From Candidatus Poribacteria bacterium (GTDB taxonomy: Bacteria > Poribacteria > WGA-4E > WGA-3G): DNA of 64,000 nucleotides. Every line of letters starts with the position of its first letter. Within the stretch, counting starts at the first letter, position 1. Of the stretch, positions 4,753 to 51,456 are shown one piece after another. Location of the stretch: positions 1,792,001 to 1,856,000 of the forward strand of contig OZ240248.1 in NCBI GenBank assembly GCA_965198235.1, read 5' to 3'. A program made the translations under genes and the position numbers. The notes under the pieces are model-generated. The model saw only the letters and a list, made by a program, of their open reading frames with translations. It ran no database searches and was not told the DNA's origin.

Positions 4753-6147
4753 TTGCATCCAGTGCCCGTAGGGATGGTTTTGCGCGATGCGATGCGTTTG
4801 GCGCAAGCGGTTAACCCAGAGGAAACACTGGACGAACAAATTCTTCAGGAGGCATCCAAATCGCAACCGGTCCCAGAAGAGTTACAACCAAAACTTGGAG
4901 AAGTCGGACAGGACTCAGGTTTAAAGCAGGACCAGAAAAATGTTGAAATCTGCACCCAAAATTTGGTTGCGATTGGCAAAGCAATCCAAGCCTACCAGAA
5001 GGAACACAACGATTTTCCAGAGTGGCTGTCGGAACTCCATCCGAAATACTTGCCAGATGCGAATAGCTTACTTTGTCCAGCAGATGAAGACGGTGGCAAG
5101 ACTTATTTTCTTATCAATAGGGATCCAAAAATGTCCATGAGTTACGACTACCAATTTCACCCTCAGTATCGAGCAACAAAAACTGAGGAACGCCTCATGT
5201 ATGGGGATGTTTTACCGCTTGTCCGTTGCCGACATCATAAGAATCGAGCGTTTGAATGTCTAAACTTGAATTTCGCTTTTAAGGTATTTTGGTCATCTGG
5301 TGTGTACACACCGGATCAGTTGTATGAAACCGTTGAGGGAGCCATTGAAGCATTGGAAAAAGGGCTTCAGCGACAAGCAGATAATGAACGGTTCTTTCAT
5401 GTCTATCGTACACTCGCGCATCTCTATATTGAAGTCGGACGCGAAAAAGATGCCGAGCACCTCATTAATCGTTTCAAATCGGTTATAAAACCTGATGACC
5501 TTCAGGCACATTTTATTCTCAGCAGGATGCTTGAAATGGCGAATCAGCATGAAGAAGTGCTTAAAGTTTTTGAGAATCTTGAGGAGTGGTATCCGGAGAA
5601 CTACCGCGTTCTTGAAGAACTTGCGAGGATTCATGAGGAACTGGGTAATTCCGATCTCGCCGCGGAATATCGGAGAAAGGCGGATCCAATGTCGGAGCTT
5701 GTAGGAAAAGTTGTGCATGGCTTTTCTGCGACAGACCTTGATGGTAAACCGATTTCGCTTCAGGACTATCGTGGGAAAGTTGTCTTGCTTGACTTTTGGG
5801 GAGTGTGGTGTGGTTTCTGCATTGACGAAATGCCGAATCTCAAAAAAGTCTACGCTACCTATAAGGATCAGGGATTTGACATCATCGGTGTTAGTCTTGA
5901 TGATGAGGAATCGGAACTGCGGGACTACATTAAGGAGAACGACATCCGGTGGCGGCAGATTTACAGCGGTGAAAGGTGGGAGGACGATCCACTCGCACAG
6001 CAGTATGAAATTATGGGTGTTCCGGAACAGTGGCTTATTGACAGAGGTGGCAAATTAATCACGCATAAAGCCAGAGGGTTGAAGTTGGAACAACTCGTAG
6101 TGGAAGCACTCAAGGACAAATCTGCAGATCAATCAATAATAGATTAA
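4753..6147 (+). CDS. Pseudopilin/DUF1559-like domain + TPR + TlpA-like redoxin (WCGFC); N-terminus uncertain
   Basis: 'CTQNLVAIGKAIQAYQKEHNDFPEWLSEL..YL....LLCPAD'; TPR helices; 'GKVVLLDFWGVWCGFC'; first ~20 codons fall in palindromic repeat-like DNA. Confidence 0.75.
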   Translation: MHPVPVGMVLRDAMRLAQAVNPEETLDEQILQEASKSQPVPEELQPKLGEVGQDSGLKQDQKNVEICTQNLVAIGKAIQAYQKEHNDFPEWLSELHPKYLPDANSLLCPADEDGGKTYFLINRDPKMSMSYDYQFHPQYRATKTEERLMYGDVLPLVRCRHHKNRAFECLNLNFAFKVFWSSGVYTPDQLYETVEGAIEALEKGLQRQADNERFFHVYRTLAHLYIEVGREKDAEHLINRFKSVIKPDDLQAHFILSRMLEMANQHEEVLKVFENLEEWYPENYRVLEELARIHEELGNSDLAAEYRRKADPMSELVGKVVHGFSATDLDGKPISLQDYRGKVVLLDFWGVWCGFCIDEMPNLKKVYATYKDQGFDIIGVSLDDEESELRDYIKENDIRWRQIYSGERWEDDPLAQQYEIMGVPEQWLIDRGGKLITHKARGLKLEQLVVEALKDKSADQSIID

Positions 6148-6345: not shown

Positions 6346-6447
6346 GTAGGTTGGGTTGAACGGATAATGCCGAACGCTCGCAGTCTAAAAACTGCTGGCA
6401 CTTTTCCCACACATCTTCTTCATAGAGATAATGAGTGAAACCCAACG
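6346..6447 (+). repeat. GTAG-type REP-like element (GTAGGTTGGGTTGAACG ... GAAACCCAACG)
   Basis: Same 17-nt start at 8184-8200; inverted copy at 51312-51456; GTAG foot typical of RAYT-associated REPs. Confidence 0.7.
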
Positions 6448-6488
6448 CTTTTCTAAATCGTCCCAACAATAGGAGGCAAAATAAGATA

Positions 6489-8177
6489 GTGGTAGACTTT
6501 AGCAACACTCTTAGTAGGACAGCAAGTGTGCAGATAGAAGCACATTGGGATCCAATCGAGAATACAGCGAATAACTTACATCGGTCAACAGAAGAAAAGT
6601 TTAATCGAGCCAAGGCACAGTGGCGAGAGCCGGTGGATATGACGTGGGAACAGTGGTTGGAGGTGTTCAATCCCGGACCTGCACATCCGCTGAAGAATTA
6701 CAGCACGGCAGATTTTCAAATCTTTCTTCCACCGTCAACCGTCAATGTCGGGGGTGTCTGGGACTTGGACCCAGAGGGAATTCTCCCTTTTCTACGCCAG
6801 TTTCACCCAAGTGCAACAATGAAAATCCCACGTTATGGCTCCATTCCATCCGATCAGAAAGATGCAAAGGCGTGCTTACGGGCACTTTCGTCTGAATATG
6901 CTGACATCGTTTTCCGAATTCATCCGCGCTTTACACTGGACGCGTCCATTGATGCCTACTTTATGCCAGCGCAATTTGCCGGACATCTGGTAATCAATCG
7001 CGACAACGGAACGGTTTGTCAATGGACGCTATCGCTTCCGAGACGCAATAGTAATGTAGATATCGGTGCTTTTAGAACTCACGATTTGGGGTTCGTTCCT
7101 CGCATGGAGCTCTACAGTTTATCGGAGACGCAGCCAGAATCGATTGCTTGGGAGGTAGCTATCACTGAGGAAGAAGTCGATAAGAAGTTTCAGAAAGCAC
7201 TCTACAAGTTCGCTGAAATTGAATGGACCCCTATTGAAGATGCGGTCGAACTCGCAAAAGCATTGAATCGCCCGATTCATGCGGTACTTTTATTCGGTGT
7301 ACTCGACGATGAATCCTGCTGAGGGACAGGCAAAAGTTTGAGAGCGGGTCCGCTCTCCTCACCGAAAATTATCAATTTGCTCAACACGCACTTTGTGAAC
7401 GTCTGGGTTCTGCTGAGAGAGTTGCCCGAACTGCAGGCGGGTACCAAAGGGGCAGCAGCTGGTGCCTTGGCAACGAAACTTTGGCAGCATTACTCCGATT
7501 CTGTGGACATCCTAACACTGACCCCCGAATTGGAAGTGATTGAACATCTGCCCAGCAAAAGTTTATTGCATCTCGATTATCTACCTCGTAGTGAGCGAAT
7601 ACCCCGATATTTAGAATTGCTAAAGTCATCCGCGGGTGTGGAAGTTGCGGCACAAAAGCTGAGGAAACTTGAAGAGCAGTCCCCCGAAAAGCACAGTCTA
7701 CCCCGCAGATTTGCCAATATCTATGAAGAATTTGGAAACCCTGTGCCTGATTTTTCTGCGACAGATCTTGATGGAAAACCGATTTCGCTCCAGCAATATC
7801 ATGGGAAAGTCGTCCTACTCGATTTTTGGGCGGTCTGGAGTGGTTTCTGCATCGGAGATATACTGAAGGTCAAGAAGATTTACGATACCTATAAAGATCA
7901 GGGATTTGACATTATCGGGGTTAGCCTCGACACCGATGAAATGAAGCTGCGAAATTACCTTAAGAAAAATAACATCCCTTGGCGACAGATTTTCAGTGGG
8001 CAAGAACGGCAGAGTCCACTTGCACAACAGTATGACGTTCGCTCTATTCCAGCACGGTGGCTTATCGATAGAGATGGCAAGCTGATCGCTCAGGAAGCCC
8101 ATCACAAGTTGATCGCCCGTAAAGGCAGGACGGCAGATTTAGAGCAGCTTGTGGCAGCGGCAATCGAAAACTGGTAG
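6489..8177 (+). CDS. Selenoprotein N (SELENON)-like selenoprotein fused to a TlpA-like redoxin (SxxC); in-frame TGA 7320-7322 read as Sec
   Basis: ORFs 6435..7322 and 7338..8177 share one frame; joined sequence LLFGVLDDESC-U-GTGKSLRAGPLSSPKIINLLNTHFVNVW matches the human SELENON motif [19 protein letters not shown]; hairpin 7340-7357; AGGAGG at 6471 before GTG 6489. Confidence 0.88.
7320..7361 (+). promoter_or_regulatory. Putative bacterial SECIS element
   Basis: GAGAGCG-GGTC-CGCTCTC perfect 7-bp stem with G-containing apical loop 25 nt after the TGA; TGAGGG can also pair with TCCTCA (7356-7361). Confidence 0.7.
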
Positions 8178-8183
8178 CCTTCC

Positions 8184-8300
8184 GTAGGTTGGGTTGAACG
8201 AATCTGTGAGGTCTGATGCGGAGTCTCGTAAGTGCGTCAAGTCCAATACAGCCGCCTATACACTCATCTGACAACTGACAACTGATAACCGATAACCAAT
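8184..8300. repeat. GTAG REP start plus a Family A right arm (CTGACAA)n
   Basis: gtaggttgggttgaacg at 8184; ctgacaactgacaactgataaccgataacc at 8268-8298. Confidence 0.65.
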
Positions 8301-8375: not shown

Positions 8376-9200
8376 TTGAAACTCGGTGTATCCACTTATT
8401 CTTATTGGCATTTCAAACCTGAACGGGTGCCGATTGAGCACGTTATCGAGGAAGCCGCACAGCTCGAACTCGATGGCGTTGAAATCTTACATCAACAGAT
8501 GGCATCGGAAGCCAATCCGTATCTCCAGAAACTGAAAAGGCTCGCTTTCATACATGGACTTGATCTGTACGCGCTCTCCATCCATCAGGGCTTCGTTTCG
8601 CCAGACGAAGCAACACGTCAAAAAAATATCAATCACACCATCCACTGCATCCGATTAGCACACGAACTCGGCATCCCCGCAATTCGCCTCAACTCAGGAC
8701 GATGGGGCACTGTTCCTTCTTTTAATGAATTAATGAAAACCGAAGGGCAAGAACCGACACTCCCCGGACACACAGAAAACGAGGCGTTTGAGTGGGTAAT
8801 CGCAGCTATCGAAAAGTGTCTTCCAGACGCTGAAAAACATGGGGTTGTTCTTGGACTTGAAAACCATTGGGGACTAACATGCACGCCCGAAGGTGTCAAT
8901 CGCATCGTCTCCGCTATTGATTCAGAATGGTTGAAAGTGACAATGGATTGTGGCAATTTCCTTTCAGATCCATATCAAAAACTGGAACAGATTGCAGATG
9001 AAGCAGTGCTTGTCCATGCCAAAACCTATTACGGTGGTGGCGAATGGTATACATTAGATTTGGATTATGCTAAAATAGGTAATATTCTAAAAGATGTTGG
9101 ATTTCGGGGATACGTATCCATTGAATTTGAAGGGAAAGCCGAGGCACATGTCGGTGTCCCACAGAGTGTGGCGATGCTCCGCGATGCCATCCCTCAATAG
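8376..9200 (+). CDS. Sugar phosphate isomerase/epimerase (xylose isomerase-like TIM barrel)
   Basis: 'LDGVEI', 'LGLENHWG', 'MDCGNF', 'VHAK', 'GYVSIEFEG' metal-binding pattern; GAGG RBS before TTG. Confidence 0.88.
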   Translation: MKLGVSTYSYWHFKPERVPIEHVIEEAAQLELDGVEILHQQMASEANPYLQKLKRLAFIHGLDLYALSIHQGFVSPDEATRQKNINHTIHCIRLAHELGIPAIRLNSGRWGTVPSFNELMKTEGQEPTLPGHTENEAFEWVIAAIEKCLPDAEKHGVVLGLENHWGLTCTPEGVNRIVSAIDSEWLKVTMDCGNFLSDPYQKLEQIADEAVLVHAKTYYGGGEWYTLDLDYAKIGNILKDVGFRGYVSIEFEGKAEAHVGVPQSVAMLRDAIPQ

Positions 9201-9226
9201 CATGACACAATTTGGAGAAACTTCTA

Positions 9227-11923
9227 ATGCTCAGAAAAATCGCAGTATCAATTTTGGCTTTCGCGTTGCTCGGAATAGTAGGAGGGAATATGACAATGGC
9301 AGACACTGGAGAAATGGCGGGAGCAACGAACGCTTCGGAGGCTTGGCGCGCCTTACAACGCCTACAGACAACTGCTACCGTCTTACACACCGTCGCTCAT
9401 CCTGACGACGAAAACGGCGCGTTGTTGACGTGGCTCAGCCGTGCACGCGGTGTCAGAACGGGATTATACTCAACCACGCGTGGTGAGGGTGGTGCTAACC
9501 TTATCGGACCCGAATTATTTGACGCGCTGGGTATCGTACGAACCGAGGAGCATCTCGCTGCTGTGCGCTACTATAGTATCGACCTCTTTTTCAGCAGTGC
9601 TGTCGATTTCGGTTATTCCAAGCGACTCGACGAAACTCTGGAAAAATGGGACTATCAGATGCTTTTGGAGGATATGGTCCGCCTGATTCGTCAATATCGT
9701 CCCGATGTCGTCATCGCTCGATTTCAGGGTAATCGTCAAGACGGACACGGACACCATCAAGCATCCGGAGTCGTAACTTTAGAGGCATTCCGTGCCGCAG
9801 GCGATGTGAATCGGTTCCCAGAACACCTCGCAGCAGGACTACAGCCGTGGCAACCGAAGAAACTCTATATCGCGCGTTCCAGATGGCGACGCAGTAACAC
9901 CGAGACTCCCGATACACCCGTGCTAAAAATTGATACAGGTGAATACAATGCCTTGTTAGGACTCTCTTATGCTCAAATTGCACGCCAGGGGCTTAGTTTC
10001 CAACGTTCACAAGGTGCTGGTCAGACGCGCGCATCCAAGGGTTCCGCTGTTGCAGAGTTGCGATTAGTGGATACGACCCTTACCGAGCAGCGAAAACCCG
10101 AAGAGAGTCTCTTTGACGGGATTGACACGACAATTGCGGGGATGGCGAAGTTGGCAAATACATCTGCCTTAGACGCAGCGTTCATTCAACTTCAAGAAAG
10201 TGTCGATGCCGCAATACGCGATTATGATGCCCGCCACCCTTGGAGAGTCGTTCCGCATCTTGCAAGCGGGCTAAAAACGGCTCGCAGCTTAATCGAAAAC
10301 GTCCAGCGTATAGACCTTGATGACAACACTCGATCGCATCTTCTTTTCCTGCTTCGGAATAAAGAGCAGGAATTTATGACTGCCGCAAACGCTGCCCTCG
10401 GTTTGTCTTTAGAAGTGCTGGTTCAACCCACAGCGGAAACCCGTTCATCTGAAACCTTTGCCGTCGCAATTCCCGGGCAGAAGTTTTCAATTGGGATGCG
10501 AATGGTGAATCCCACTCCGATTGCAGCTGAACTCGTTAATGCCTCACTCCACACCCCCGAAGGCTGGAACGTGCATCCTATCCAGAAGGACTCGGATCAG
10601 GAAGGAATAATACCTATACAGACGAACGAACCAATCTCTATCGTGTTTGAGGTGCAGGTGGCACAGAACGCGGATTACACGCAGCCTTATTGGACTCGCG
10701 CGTCTGAGTACCACGATGCTGTCTATACACTGAAGCGTCCAGAATTTCGCTTCCTACCTTTCACATTACCTGAGGTCAATGGTGTTGTAACCTATCGTGT
10801 AGATGGGGTGGACTTTACGCTGACGCAGCCAGCACAAACAGTTTCAATTAATAGACCGTGGGGAGAAAGACGACGTTTGCTAACGGTTGCCCCTGCTATC
10901 AGTCTATCTGTTTCACCGCGTATTGGCGTTATTCCAATCTCTGAATCCAATGTCGCAAATGGGGAAGCGACATTTACTGCAACAGTGGAGATGCTAAATA
11001 ATGTAAAGGGTGAGGCAGAGGGGACCCTTTCGCTTAAGTTACCGGACGGATGGTATTCGTCACCTGAAAGCGCGCCTTTTGATTTTACGCACGAGGGTGC
11101 GAGCAAAACGTTTGCTTTTCAGGTAGCTGCCAAGAATGTCGAAGCCGACAAGGAGTACACAATTCAGGCAGTCGCTACATACGATGGCGAAGAATATACT
11201 ACTGGCTATCAGACGATTGATCATCCAGATCTTGAACCGCGCCACCTATATCACCCTGCCGTCATGACGCTTCGCAGTATTCCACTCAAAGTCCCATCGA
11301 ATTTGAGCGTCGGGTATATCATGGGGGTAGGCGACAGGGTACCCGAGGCTCTGCAACAGATCGGTATCAACGTGGAGATGCTTGATAGGGAGGAACTCCG
11401 CACCGGTGATCTGAATCGATTTGGGACAATCCTCGTTGGCATCCGAGCGTATGCCGTTCGGCGGGATCTCGTCTCCTATAACAGCAGACTCCTCGATTAC
11501 GTGCATAAGGGTGGCAACCTCATCATTCAATATCAGACCCCGGAATTTGATACGGCTCCTTTTGGTCCCTATCCTTATACGATGGGCAGACGACCAGAAG
11601 AAGTCTCCGAAGAGGATGCACAGGTAACTCTTTTGATGCCAGACAACCCCATCTTCCAGCATCCCAATCAAATTACAGAGGCTGATTTCGATGGATGGGT
11701 TGAGGAGCGCGGTTCTAAATTCCTTACTGAATGGGACGCAAACTATCAGGCACTCCTCACATGCAATGACCGCGGGCAGGAGCCGCAACACGGCGGATTC
11801 CTCTATGCGACGTACGGACAAGGTTCCTATACATACTCCGCTTACGCCTTTTATAGACAACTTCCGGCGGGTGTAGCGGGCGCGTACCGCCTTTTCGTCA
11901 ACATGCTAACCCTTGGTCAGTAA
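9227..11923 (+). CDS. Secreted PIG-L/LmbE family deacetylase with NEW3/Ig-like and C-terminal glutamine-amidotransferase-like domains
   Basis: 'AHPDDE', 'TRGEGGAN', 'DFGYSK', 'HGHHQASG'; signal peptide from ATG 9227. Confidence 0.88.
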   Translation: MLRKIAVSILAFALLGIVGGNMTMADTGEMAGATNASEAWRALQRLQTTATVLHTVAHPDDENGALLTWLSRARGVRTGLYSTTRGEGGANLIGPELFDALGIVRTEEHLAAVRYYSIDLFFSSAVDFGYSKRLDETLEKWDYQMLLEDMVRLIRQYRPDVVIARFQGNRQDGHGHHQASGVVTLEAFRAAGDVNRFPEHLAAGLQPWQPKKLYIARSRWRRSNTETPDTPVLKIDTGEYNALLGLSYAQIARQGLSFQRSQGAGQTRASKGSAVAELRLVDTTLTEQRKPEESLFDGIDTTIAGMAKLANTSALDAAFIQLQESVDAAIRDYDARHPWRVVPHLASGLKTARSLIENVQRIDLDDNTRSHLLFLLRNKEQEFMTAANAALGLSLEVLVQPTAETRSSETFAVAIPGQKFSIGMRMVNPTPIAAELVNASLHTPEGWNVHPIQKDSDQEGIIPIQTNEPISIVFEVQVAQNADYTQPYWTRASEYHDAVYTLKRPEFRFLPFTLPEVNGVVTYRVDGVDFTLTQPAQTVSINRPWGERRRLLTVAPAISLSVSPRIGVIPISESNVANGEATFTATVEMLNNVKGEAEGTLSLKLPDGWYSSPESAPFDFTHEGASKTFAFQVAAKNVEADKEYTIQAVATYDGEEYTTGYQTIDHPDLEPRHLYHPAVMTLRSIPLKVPSNLSVGYIMGVGDRVPEALQQIGINVEMLDREELRTGDLNRFGTILVGIRAYAVRRDLVSYNSRLLDYVHKGGNLIIQYQTPEFDTAPFGPYPYTMGRRPEEVSEEDAQVTLLMPDNPIFQHPNQITEADFDGWVEERGSKFLTEWDANYQALLTCNDRGQEPQHGGFLYATYGQGSYTYSAYAFYRQLPAGVAGAYRLFVNMLTLGQ

Positions 11924-51311: not shown

Positions 51312-51456
51312 GAGTGAAACCCAACGTATTCTCATAACCCTAGCGTCTAAGTCGTTGGGTTTCGCTATCTCTATCTACACAAAATAGATCATCGAAAATC
51401 GGGCTTCCCCCTACAAACTGGCGCGTTCTGAGTCTTTATCGCTCTACCCAACCTAC
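51312..51456 (-). repeat. GTAG REP-like element between two truncated genes
   Basis: gagtgaaacccaacg...cgttgggtttcgct...ctctacccaacctac. Confidence 0.7.

Follow-up and report, generated by a model that had tools for sequence, protein, structure and literature searches.

A selenoprotein N family gene of Candidatus Poribacteria, cut by open reading frame callers at a UGA that very probably encodes selenocysteine

The window analysed here, a 64,000-nucleotide stretch of a genome of Candidatus Poribacteria (contig OZ240248.1, positions 1,792,001 to 1,856,000 of the forward strand), contains a gene at 6489..8177 (+) that very probably encodes a 562-residue bacterial member of the selenoprotein N (SELENON, SelN) family, produced from one gene in which a UGA codon is read as selenocysteine (Sec) by means of a downstream hairpin and contributes to a Cys-Sec redox centre. 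It is a true selenoprotein gene, a bacterial form of SELENON, for which we infer the biochemical function. Open reading frame (ORF) callers cut it in two at the UGA, and the resulting ORFs 6435..7322 and 7338..8177 share one forward frame. A reading of this DNA made earlier from the letters alone (the sequence-only reading) had proposed that an ORF caller had split the gene at its Sec codon and that the product was a selenoprotein of about 562 residues. Both proposals were upheld, as 6489..8177 (+) forms a single frame of 562 codons in which the TGA at 7320-7322 is the sole internal stop, and read-through translation (TGA as U) yields 562 residues with one recoded codon, U278, in the local protein context ...HAVLLFGVLDDESC-U-GTGKSLRAGPLSSPKIINLLNTHFVNVW... 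Orthologues start at the equivalent position (V/M-IDFSN) and share the same layout, with one TGA each. The elements of the gene on which the argument turns are as follows.

6472..6477 (+): Shine-Dalgarno-like AGGAGG, read from the sequence, 11 nt before the GTG start at 6489
6489..8177 (+): single gene for a 562-residue selenoprotein (SelN domain, linker, redoxin domain), with the stop TAG at 8175-8177
7320..7322 (+): UGA read as selenocysteine (U278), as indicated by the decoding machinery, TGA conservation and Cys homologues
7340..7357 (+): hairpin within the coding sequence resembling a bacterial selenocysteine insertion sequence (bSECIS), with the 7-bp stem GAGAGCG/CGCUCUC and the loop GGUC, 17 nt after the UGA

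The sequence-only reading had claimed homology to SELENON on both sides of the TGA, and this was borne out by BLASTP. The read-through protein matched coelacanth Selenoprotein N at 4e-41 (30% identity over 337 columns, query residues 102-396), carp Selenoprotein N at 4e-40 and a frog protein, the gene model of which skips the Sec exon, at 8e-27; each was a single alignment running through the Sec site. The motif SCUG is present as S276-C277-U278-G279, and the blocks held in common with coelacanth and carp are FRIH, PAQF(A/T)GH, D(L/I)G(F/Y)(V/L)P(R/Q)MEL and H(A/S)(V/I)LL(F/W)G(V/A)LDD(E/Q)SC. Identity to vertebrate SELENON was 27-30%, compared with 40-47% to Planctomycetota-type proteins. A profile of six bacterial N-terminal halves (alignment A1, comprising the part before the TGA only) retrieved the frog SELENON orthologue at 3e-25 from 5.8 billion sequences, and its matches among proteins longer than 485 residues numbered six, five of them bacterial and the sixth from frog. 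Among the best 120 of 346 relatives, those nearest to the frog protein come from fish, reptiles, birds and mammals and bear the name Selenoprotein N or SELN. In the language-model Atlas the Cys homologue P0007 was nearest to a 'Selenoprotein N' cluster (0.93), which serves as a lead only. The transmembrane (TM) segment and EF-hand of the animal protein had been described as lacking, in agreement with the absence of any EF-hand family match at E up to 1 in the window protein and with a start about 12 residues before the conserved domain, which leaves no N-terminal TM anchor. No Pfam or NCBIfam model matched residues 1-400, and no SELENON chain was found in the PDB by sequence or fold search.

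The machinery for Sec decoding, the presence of which the sequence-only reading had left to be established, was found complete in the same genome (5.17 Mb in 2 contigs). It comprises selA (592 bits), selB (348 bits), selD (360 bits) and, beside selB, a tRNA-Sec (78 bits) that was confirmed by ARAGORN, with anticodon TCA. The tRNA-Sec (G000:C1:3673008-3673097 (-)) lies about 170 nt downstream of selB (3673267-3675162 (-)) on the same strand (loci L015 and L004). An in-frame TGA is also carried by selD itself (n = 1; locus L012, G000:C1:3115227-3116150 (-)), and selenophosphate synthetase is probably a selenoprotein in the source genome. Across the phylum, selA was detected in 163 of 176 genomes. 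Elsewhere in the source genome TGA acts as an ordinary stop, ending 488 of the 2293 frames of at least 300 aa.

The read-through protein was searched against the 176 genomes of the phylum, giving 150 listed matches, of which 147 cover residue 278. TGA was retained in 146 of these 147 listed matches; exactly one TGA and no other stop was seen in 142, several stops in 4 and none in 1. The codon was likewise TGA in 68 of 69 aligned homologues and in all 5 SelN copies of the source genome. Some SelN copies of related genomes carry two to three TGA codons plus TAA (G156:C1:1008896-1010089, G090:C37:60159-61352 and G108:C1:756944-758137) and are probably decaying paralogues. Homologues with Cys at the site were also found (P0003, P0007, P0059, P0079 and P0124, reading ...ESC-C-G(T/S)GK), including a Sec/Cys pair that is 87% identical, P0003 with Cys and P0004 with an ORF ending ...ESC. 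Among the listed differences between the window and contigs of sequencing runs, with a further 85 outside the listing, none fell at 7320-7322.

Bacterial decoding requires a hairpin within the reading frame, unlike the 3'-untranslated region (3'-UTR) SECIS of eukaryotes. The perfect hairpin at 7340-7357 that had been pointed out after the TGA was confirmed as GAGAGCG/GGTC/CGCTCTC, and in a gapless alignment of 69 homologues (paralogue group A, 30 orthologues; group B, 14; group C, 22 plus 2; and a single sigma-fused form) it was present at the same distance from the TGA in all 69. Within the 7-bp stem 98.9% of cells pair, compared with 34-70% in slid controls, and compensatory changes occur at three of the seven stem pairs. 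At one of them 3 rows have C-G in place of G-C, which alters the protein from Leu to Phe and from Ser to Cys; at another, 1 row has G-C in place of A-U and 25 rows show the G-U intermediate; at the third, 1 row has A-U in place of G-C. The observed covariation score was reached by none of 500 shuffles. In the 30 orthologues no more than 9 of the 72 four-fold degenerate sites at conserved residues lack variation, yet all five consecutive sites in the hairpin codons +8 to +12 do so; in codons +8 to +10 the sites are likewise fixed in group B (14 rows) and group C (24 rows). Two further paralogues of the source genome have different hairpin sequences in the same place. The folding check that the sequence-only reading had suggested therefore gave a divided answer, in that the energy was unremarkable and support came from conservation, covariation and frozen synonymous sites. 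It is because of conservation that the hairpin is considered significant, as its folding energy alone is not unusual. Judged from these comparisons, it is probably the RNA element expected of SelB use and appears to be under selection. A canonical bSECIS is expected to have a characteristic spacing from the UGA and a G in the loop.

Beyond the Cys-Sec motif, a structure was predicted with AlphaFold2 from a 38-row alignment (mean predicted local distance difference test, pLDDT, 72), in which residues 1-385 mostly scored pLDDT 80-97. The protein can be divided as follows.

6525..7118 (+): N-terminal beta-rich SelN subdomain (aa 13-210), AlphaFold2 pLDDT mostly 75-96
7194..7643 (+): thioredoxin-like SelN subdomain (aa 236-385) of the AlphaFold2 model, holding S276-C277-U278-G279
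7728..8108 (+): TlpA/ResA-like redoxin domain (aa 414-540), Pfam Redoxin at 1e-20, 74.4 bits (cut-off 26.6)
7836..7850 (+): degenerate active-site motif W450-S-G-F-C454, which is WCxxC in TlpA/ResA proteins

The conserved blocks of the beta-rich subdomain include RN(S/T)NVD and PRMEL, with invariant columns in alignments A1 and A3. In the predicted structure the fold around the motif is thioredoxin-like or UAS-like, with C277-U278 between strand 263-268 and helix 282-286, and the Cys-Sec pair would occupy the position of the thioredoxin CxxC, between the first strand and the first helix. The last 150 or so residues, lying outside the SelN domain, constitute a fused redoxin domain that the sequence-only reading had overlooked. 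This domain also matches AhpC-TSA (4.6e-20, 72.2 bits, cut-off 26) and the ResA structure 4nmu_A (5.2e-17), the sequence matches in the PDB being redoxin relatives only, and it falls short of the NCBIfam cut-offs for ResA (79.5 against 170 bits) and TlpA (47.8 against 230). Its active-site motif reads WNGFC in 16 of 30 orthologues, WNSFC in 9, WSGFC in 3, WHSFC in 1 and WCGFC in 1, so that the first Cys of the redoxin CxxC is gone in 29 of the 30 and the second is always retained. The sole orthologue with WCGFC in the fused domain (locus L042, G068) may represent the ancestral state before loss of the first Cys. No export signal or membrane anchor was visible in the sequence on inspection by eye.

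When the phylum was surveyed with the N-terminal half alone (E up to 1e-20), SelN was found in 131 of the 176 genomes, with 789 matches in total, at least 14 of them in one genome and 5 in the source genome. Three families of one order hold it (109 of 111, 10 of 11 and 11 of 29 genomes), and the other eight families gave 0 of 24. The paralogues fall into group A, in which SelN is joined to redoxin and a TPR insert may be present, group B, consisting of SelN alone (about 390 aa), and group C, with a SCUA motif and an uncharacterised C-terminal domain of about 130 aa; sigma-fused forms make up a further type. Four additional SelN paralogues occur in the source genome (G000:C1:5037526-5039064 (+), 1265796-1267349 (-), 5044163 (+) and 2836980 (+); loci L093 and L094), each with a TGA and a downstream hairpin. 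Two of the four have SCUA in place of SCUG, two lie about 6 kb apart, and the C-terminal domain of about 130 aa (...DYTxVEIDTTxFExGGxL...) found in all of them had no Pfam match. In the sigma-fused forms (P0003, P0004, P0122 and P0124; locus L089) an extracytoplasmic function (ECF) sigma-70 factor, one TM segment and the SelN domain are joined in one protein. P0003, P0004 and P0122 gave Sigma70_r2, Sigma70_r4 and ECF matches, P0124 gave Sigma70_r2 and r4_2 only, and both Sec and Cys versions exist. Such fusions suggest that SelN is capable of extracytoplasmic sensing.

The family had been regarded in the sequence-only reading as otherwise characteristic of animals. This view was contradicted by a profile search over 1.84 billion representatives of 50% identity clusters, which revealed a large bacterial family, with 1184 SelN clusters at E up to 0.001, 571 at E up to 1e-10 and 242 at E up to 1e-30. 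Among the best 150 representatives, 106 have ...SC or ...TC as their last residues and another 8 finish with ...(A/G/N)C in the corresponding position, meaning that 114 are cut at the Cys before the TGA, and Cys stands at the site in just 4. A search with two peptide patterns from a 10-row alignment, favouring the DDESC type and hence liable to miss other phyla, returned 46 loci at one genome per species: 28 from Candidatus Poribacteria, 16 from Planctomycetota (including Fimbriiglobus and Pirellulaceae) and 2 from 'uncultured bacterium'. One bacterial-type member, P0258, is named 'selenoprotein N' at JGI/IMG, so automated annotation had already linked the bacterial family to SelN. SELENON is also listed among algal selenoproteins (PMC7539508).

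For phylogenetic analysis, 175 sequences were compared with a hidden Markov model of the N-terminal half; 172 matched, and the 142 that covered at least 180 positions were retained. FastTree separated 27 rows from the other 115 on a branch of 0.83 with support 100. The group of 27 includes the vertebrates, and a crude motif screen flagged an EF-hand in all but 5 of its rows. All the poribacterial groups together with the sigma-fused forms made up a clade of 23 (support 100) within a DDESC-type group of 74 (support 99). Five eukaryote-like representatives were looked up, of which three belong to clusters named Selenoprotein N (from spider, octopus and coral) and two are nameless; EF-hand matches at E up to 0.01 were found in 10 of 10 eukaryote-like rows, one alone scoring above the Pfam cut-off. 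In a quick IQ-TREE analysis of 68 chosen rows, the 14 eukaryote rows formed one group with a Shimodaira-Hasegawa-like approximate likelihood ratio test (SH-aLRT) value of 100, the 16 rows of the poribacterial clade formed another (99), and Poribacteria grouped with the DDESC bacteria (95.6). A tree joining Poribacteria to the eukaryotes was, however, not rejected by the approximately unbiased (AU) test (p-AU 0.555), the constrained tree being 4.3 log-likelihood units better, and the deep order of the groups is therefore not fixed by the trees.

A mechanism can be proposed on this basis, in which SelB carrying Sec-tRNA(Sec) would be recruited by the hairpin at 7340-7357 and Sec would be inserted at the UGA at 7320. 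The resulting Cys277-Sec278 pair may then cycle between a selenolate/thiol and a selenenylsulfide form, reducing oxidised cysteines on client proteins, as the SCUG of the animal protein and the GCUG of thioredoxin reductase would suggest by analogy. A role as a reductase of oxidised client-protein cysteines has been proposed for animal SELENON. Its SCUG has been likened to the thioredoxin reductase GCUG (PMC12839072). The monothiol redoxin domain and a neighbouring CxxC paralogue, described below, might form a relay to or from the Cys-Sec centre, handing electrons to it or resolving it, which is speculation. A cytoplasmic site of action is probable, given that membrane anchor and EF-hand are missing and that no signal peptide can be seen.

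Several observations weigh against this account. The single stop-free match among those listed, a group C member (locus L085, G025:C1:2214956-2216050), has TGG (Trp) at the Sec position with its hairpin intact; function may have been lost recently, the sequence may be wrong, or the change may be tolerated. Beyond the TGA, the 86-nt stretch folds with ordinary energy (z = -0.35, with 73 of 200 shuffles folding as well), an Rfam scan of 7250-7450 returned no relevant family and only a chance snoRNA match (E 1.2), and the covariation of the hairpin is modest because the hairpin scarcely varies. Parts of the gene are represented in contigs from two RNA libraries that bear the label sponge metagenome, but under a 31-nt rule none bridges the TGA, the 215-nt piece at 7133-7347 extending 25 nt past it, and these contigs prove neither transcription nor decoding. 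Sec insertion in vivo and a full-length protein are what we infer from the sequence. The redoxin domain was modelled at pLDDT 30-50, is thinly covered in the alignment and has lost its nucleophilic Cys, and it is because of this missing residue and poor model that the electron relay is speculative; the cytoplasmic location, in turn, is deduced solely from the lack of a visible signal peptide. It is hardly credible that the TGA is a true stop separating two genes, one for an N-terminal protein of 277 or 295 aa and one for a TlpA-like protein of 279 aa starting at TTG 7338. This arrangement is what ORF callers give, and about 110 database entries of 311-513 aa start MRAGPLSSPK..., some being named TlpA family protein by NCBI. 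The stop would, however, interrupt the thioredoxin-like subdomain at the point where strand 263-268 gives way to helix 282-286, the alignments with SELENON and with the Cys forms continue straight across the TGA, the same frame is kept in 142 of the 147 matches listed, and the 3' ORF starts within the conserved GKxLRAGPL block. Just as improbable is that the UGA is read as Cys, Trp or another standard residue, or that the gene is a decaying pseudogene, with no Sec being made. The homologue with TGG and the several stops in 4 of the 147 matches listed could be explained in this way, but the Sec machinery is complete, the hairpin is under selection, TGA is a normal stop elsewhere in the genome, the position is that of the redox-active residue of SELENON, and outside this codon the frame has stayed open in three paralogue groups.

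It was also possible that the SelN domain is mainly a redox sensor or regulatory module, in which a Cys-Sec switch reports oxidative or thiol stress to a partner. In close relatives of the same clade SelN is linked to an ECF sigma-70 factor by a single TM segment, which is a signal-sensing layout; animal SELENON has been described as sensing calcium in connection with the redox regulation of SERCA (PMC12839072); and the many paralogues, reaching at least 14 in a genome, would fit diversified sensors. The window copy, however, has no DNA-binding, sigma or signalling domain and its partners are redoxin domains, a better fit to electron transfer, and we regard the sensor function as unlikely for it, while allowing it an appreciable chance. 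The sequence-only reading had further raised host-symbiont transfer or a bacterial origin. Recent acquisition of the gene from an animal, be it the sponge host or some other, would be in keeping with the occurrence of its relatives in metagenome-assembled genomes of Candidatus Poribacteria, the presence of the stretch in RNA libraries labelled sponge metagenome, the listing of SelN in a sponge (PMC3473315) and the tree of Poribacteria plus eukaryotes that the AU test did not reject. Against such a recent event stand the eukaryote rows, including the octopus, spider and coral clusters, which form one group excluding all 16 rows of the poribacterial clade, and the 27-30% identity to vertebrates against 40-47% to Planctomycetota-type proteins. 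The bacterial in-frame SECIS, the lack of a TM segment and EF-hand, and the occurrence of the gene in 131 of 176 genomes with many paralogues also speak against it, and we consider it very unlikely. As the eukaryote and poribacterial rows are each separate and well supported, recent host-to-symbiont transfer is not supported within the sampled diversity. A more far-reaching proposal, to which we attach a rather small probability, is that SELENON began as a bacterial Sec oxidoreductase and entered eukaryotes once, the sponge-symbiont poribacterial clade being the closest living relative of the eukaryotic one. In Poribacteria the family would afterwards have grown to a dozen or more Sec paralogues per genome, connected with ECF sigma factors, CxxC partners and redoxin domains of the monothiol kind. 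If true, this would amount to a network of selenium-based redox sensing and repair that has no described counterpart.

Immediately upstream of the gene lies a neighbour that the sequence-only reading had also overlooked.

4753..6147 (+): upstream neighbour, a TPR plus redoxin protein with intact WCGFC, paralogous to the C-terminal module of the gene

A separate CxxC paralogue of this kind was present within 1.5-kb flanks in 23 of 30 orthologous loci. Downstream lie a xylose-isomerase-like TIM-barrel protein (8376-9200 (+)) and a 903-aa protein with a PIG-L deacetylase domain (9212-11923 (+)), neither of which shows an obvious connection with the selenoprotein. On either side of the gene stands a copy of the 17-nt motif GTAGGTTGGGTTGAACG, the two forming a direct repeat (6346-6362 and 8184-8200 (+)), and the motif recurs at 51440-51456 (-). 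It has 73 exact copies in the genome and looks like a dispersed intergenic repeat. In four sequencing runs contig depth was several-fold higher over the repeat flanks, where many contigs join or end.

Full-text literature searches combining the family with bacteria, prokaryotes, Poribacteria, Planctomycetes or horizontal transfer found no paper describing a bacterial selenoprotein N. A poribacterial SelenoN may have been mentioned before in unpublished or book-level form, and the PDB searches showed no structure of it. Term searches of BSepDB (PMC13326102), a 2026 review of the prokaryotic selenoproteome (PMC13188914), the GOS survey (PMC2398784), deep-Sep (PMC12013277) and a 2026 SelN review (PMC12839072) found no mention of a bacterial SelN; for the bacterial selenoproteome surveys this applies to main texts only, and supplementary tables may list the family under another name. 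Mutations in SELENON cause congenital myopathies, and what the 2026 SelN review says of catalysis goes no further than an idea based on the motif (PMC12839072). A family of bacterial proteins built around the same SCUG centre provides soluble, single-domain material for structural work and enzymology, including the natural Cys forms P0007 (435 aa, with a signal peptide) and P0002 (405 aa), and a poorly understood human muscle-disease enzyme could become easier to study by way of its bacterial relatives. The finding also adds to the bacterial selenoproteome a large family whose members ORF callers cut systematically, and it bears on the origin of an 'animal' selenoprotein.

Among known systems, the Planctomycetota and metagenome SelN-like proteins share with the window protein the domain, the ...DD(E/Q)SC-U motif and ORFs cut at the TGA, but most of them have a signal peptide or lipobox-like N-terminus and end after the SelN domain, neither of which is true of the window protein. 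TlpA, ResA and DsbE oxidoreductases resemble its C-terminal domain, which matches Redoxin, AhpC-TSA and ResA structures, whereas the window domain has WSGFC instead of WCxxC, scores far under the NCBIfam equivalog cut-offs and has no membrane anchor that could be seen. Thioredoxin folds of the DsbH, DsbD-gamma, AGR2-AGR3-ERp19 and UAS types show 11-19% sequence identity, and none has the Cys-Sec pair or the N-terminal beta-rich subdomain. With thioredoxin reductase the window protein shares a vicinal Cys-Sec pair expected to form a selenenylsulfide (PMC12839072), a likeness that would be one of chemistry only, as GCUG lies on the flexible C-terminal tail of a flavoenzyme and the motif of the window protein lies inside a thioredoxin-like fold with no flavin domain. 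Animal SELENON (SEPN1) has in common with it a collinear homologous stretch of about 340 residues that takes in both sides of Sec, the SC-U-G motif and a predicted thioredoxin/UAS-like fold. The animal protein is luminal in the endoplasmic reticulum (PMC12839072) and its SECIS is located in the 3'-UTR, whereas the window protein, at just 27-30% identity, is probably cytoplasmic, is without an N-terminal TM anchor, EF-hand or visible signal peptide, and is encoded by a gene with an in-frame bacterial SECIS and a fused C-terminal redoxin domain.

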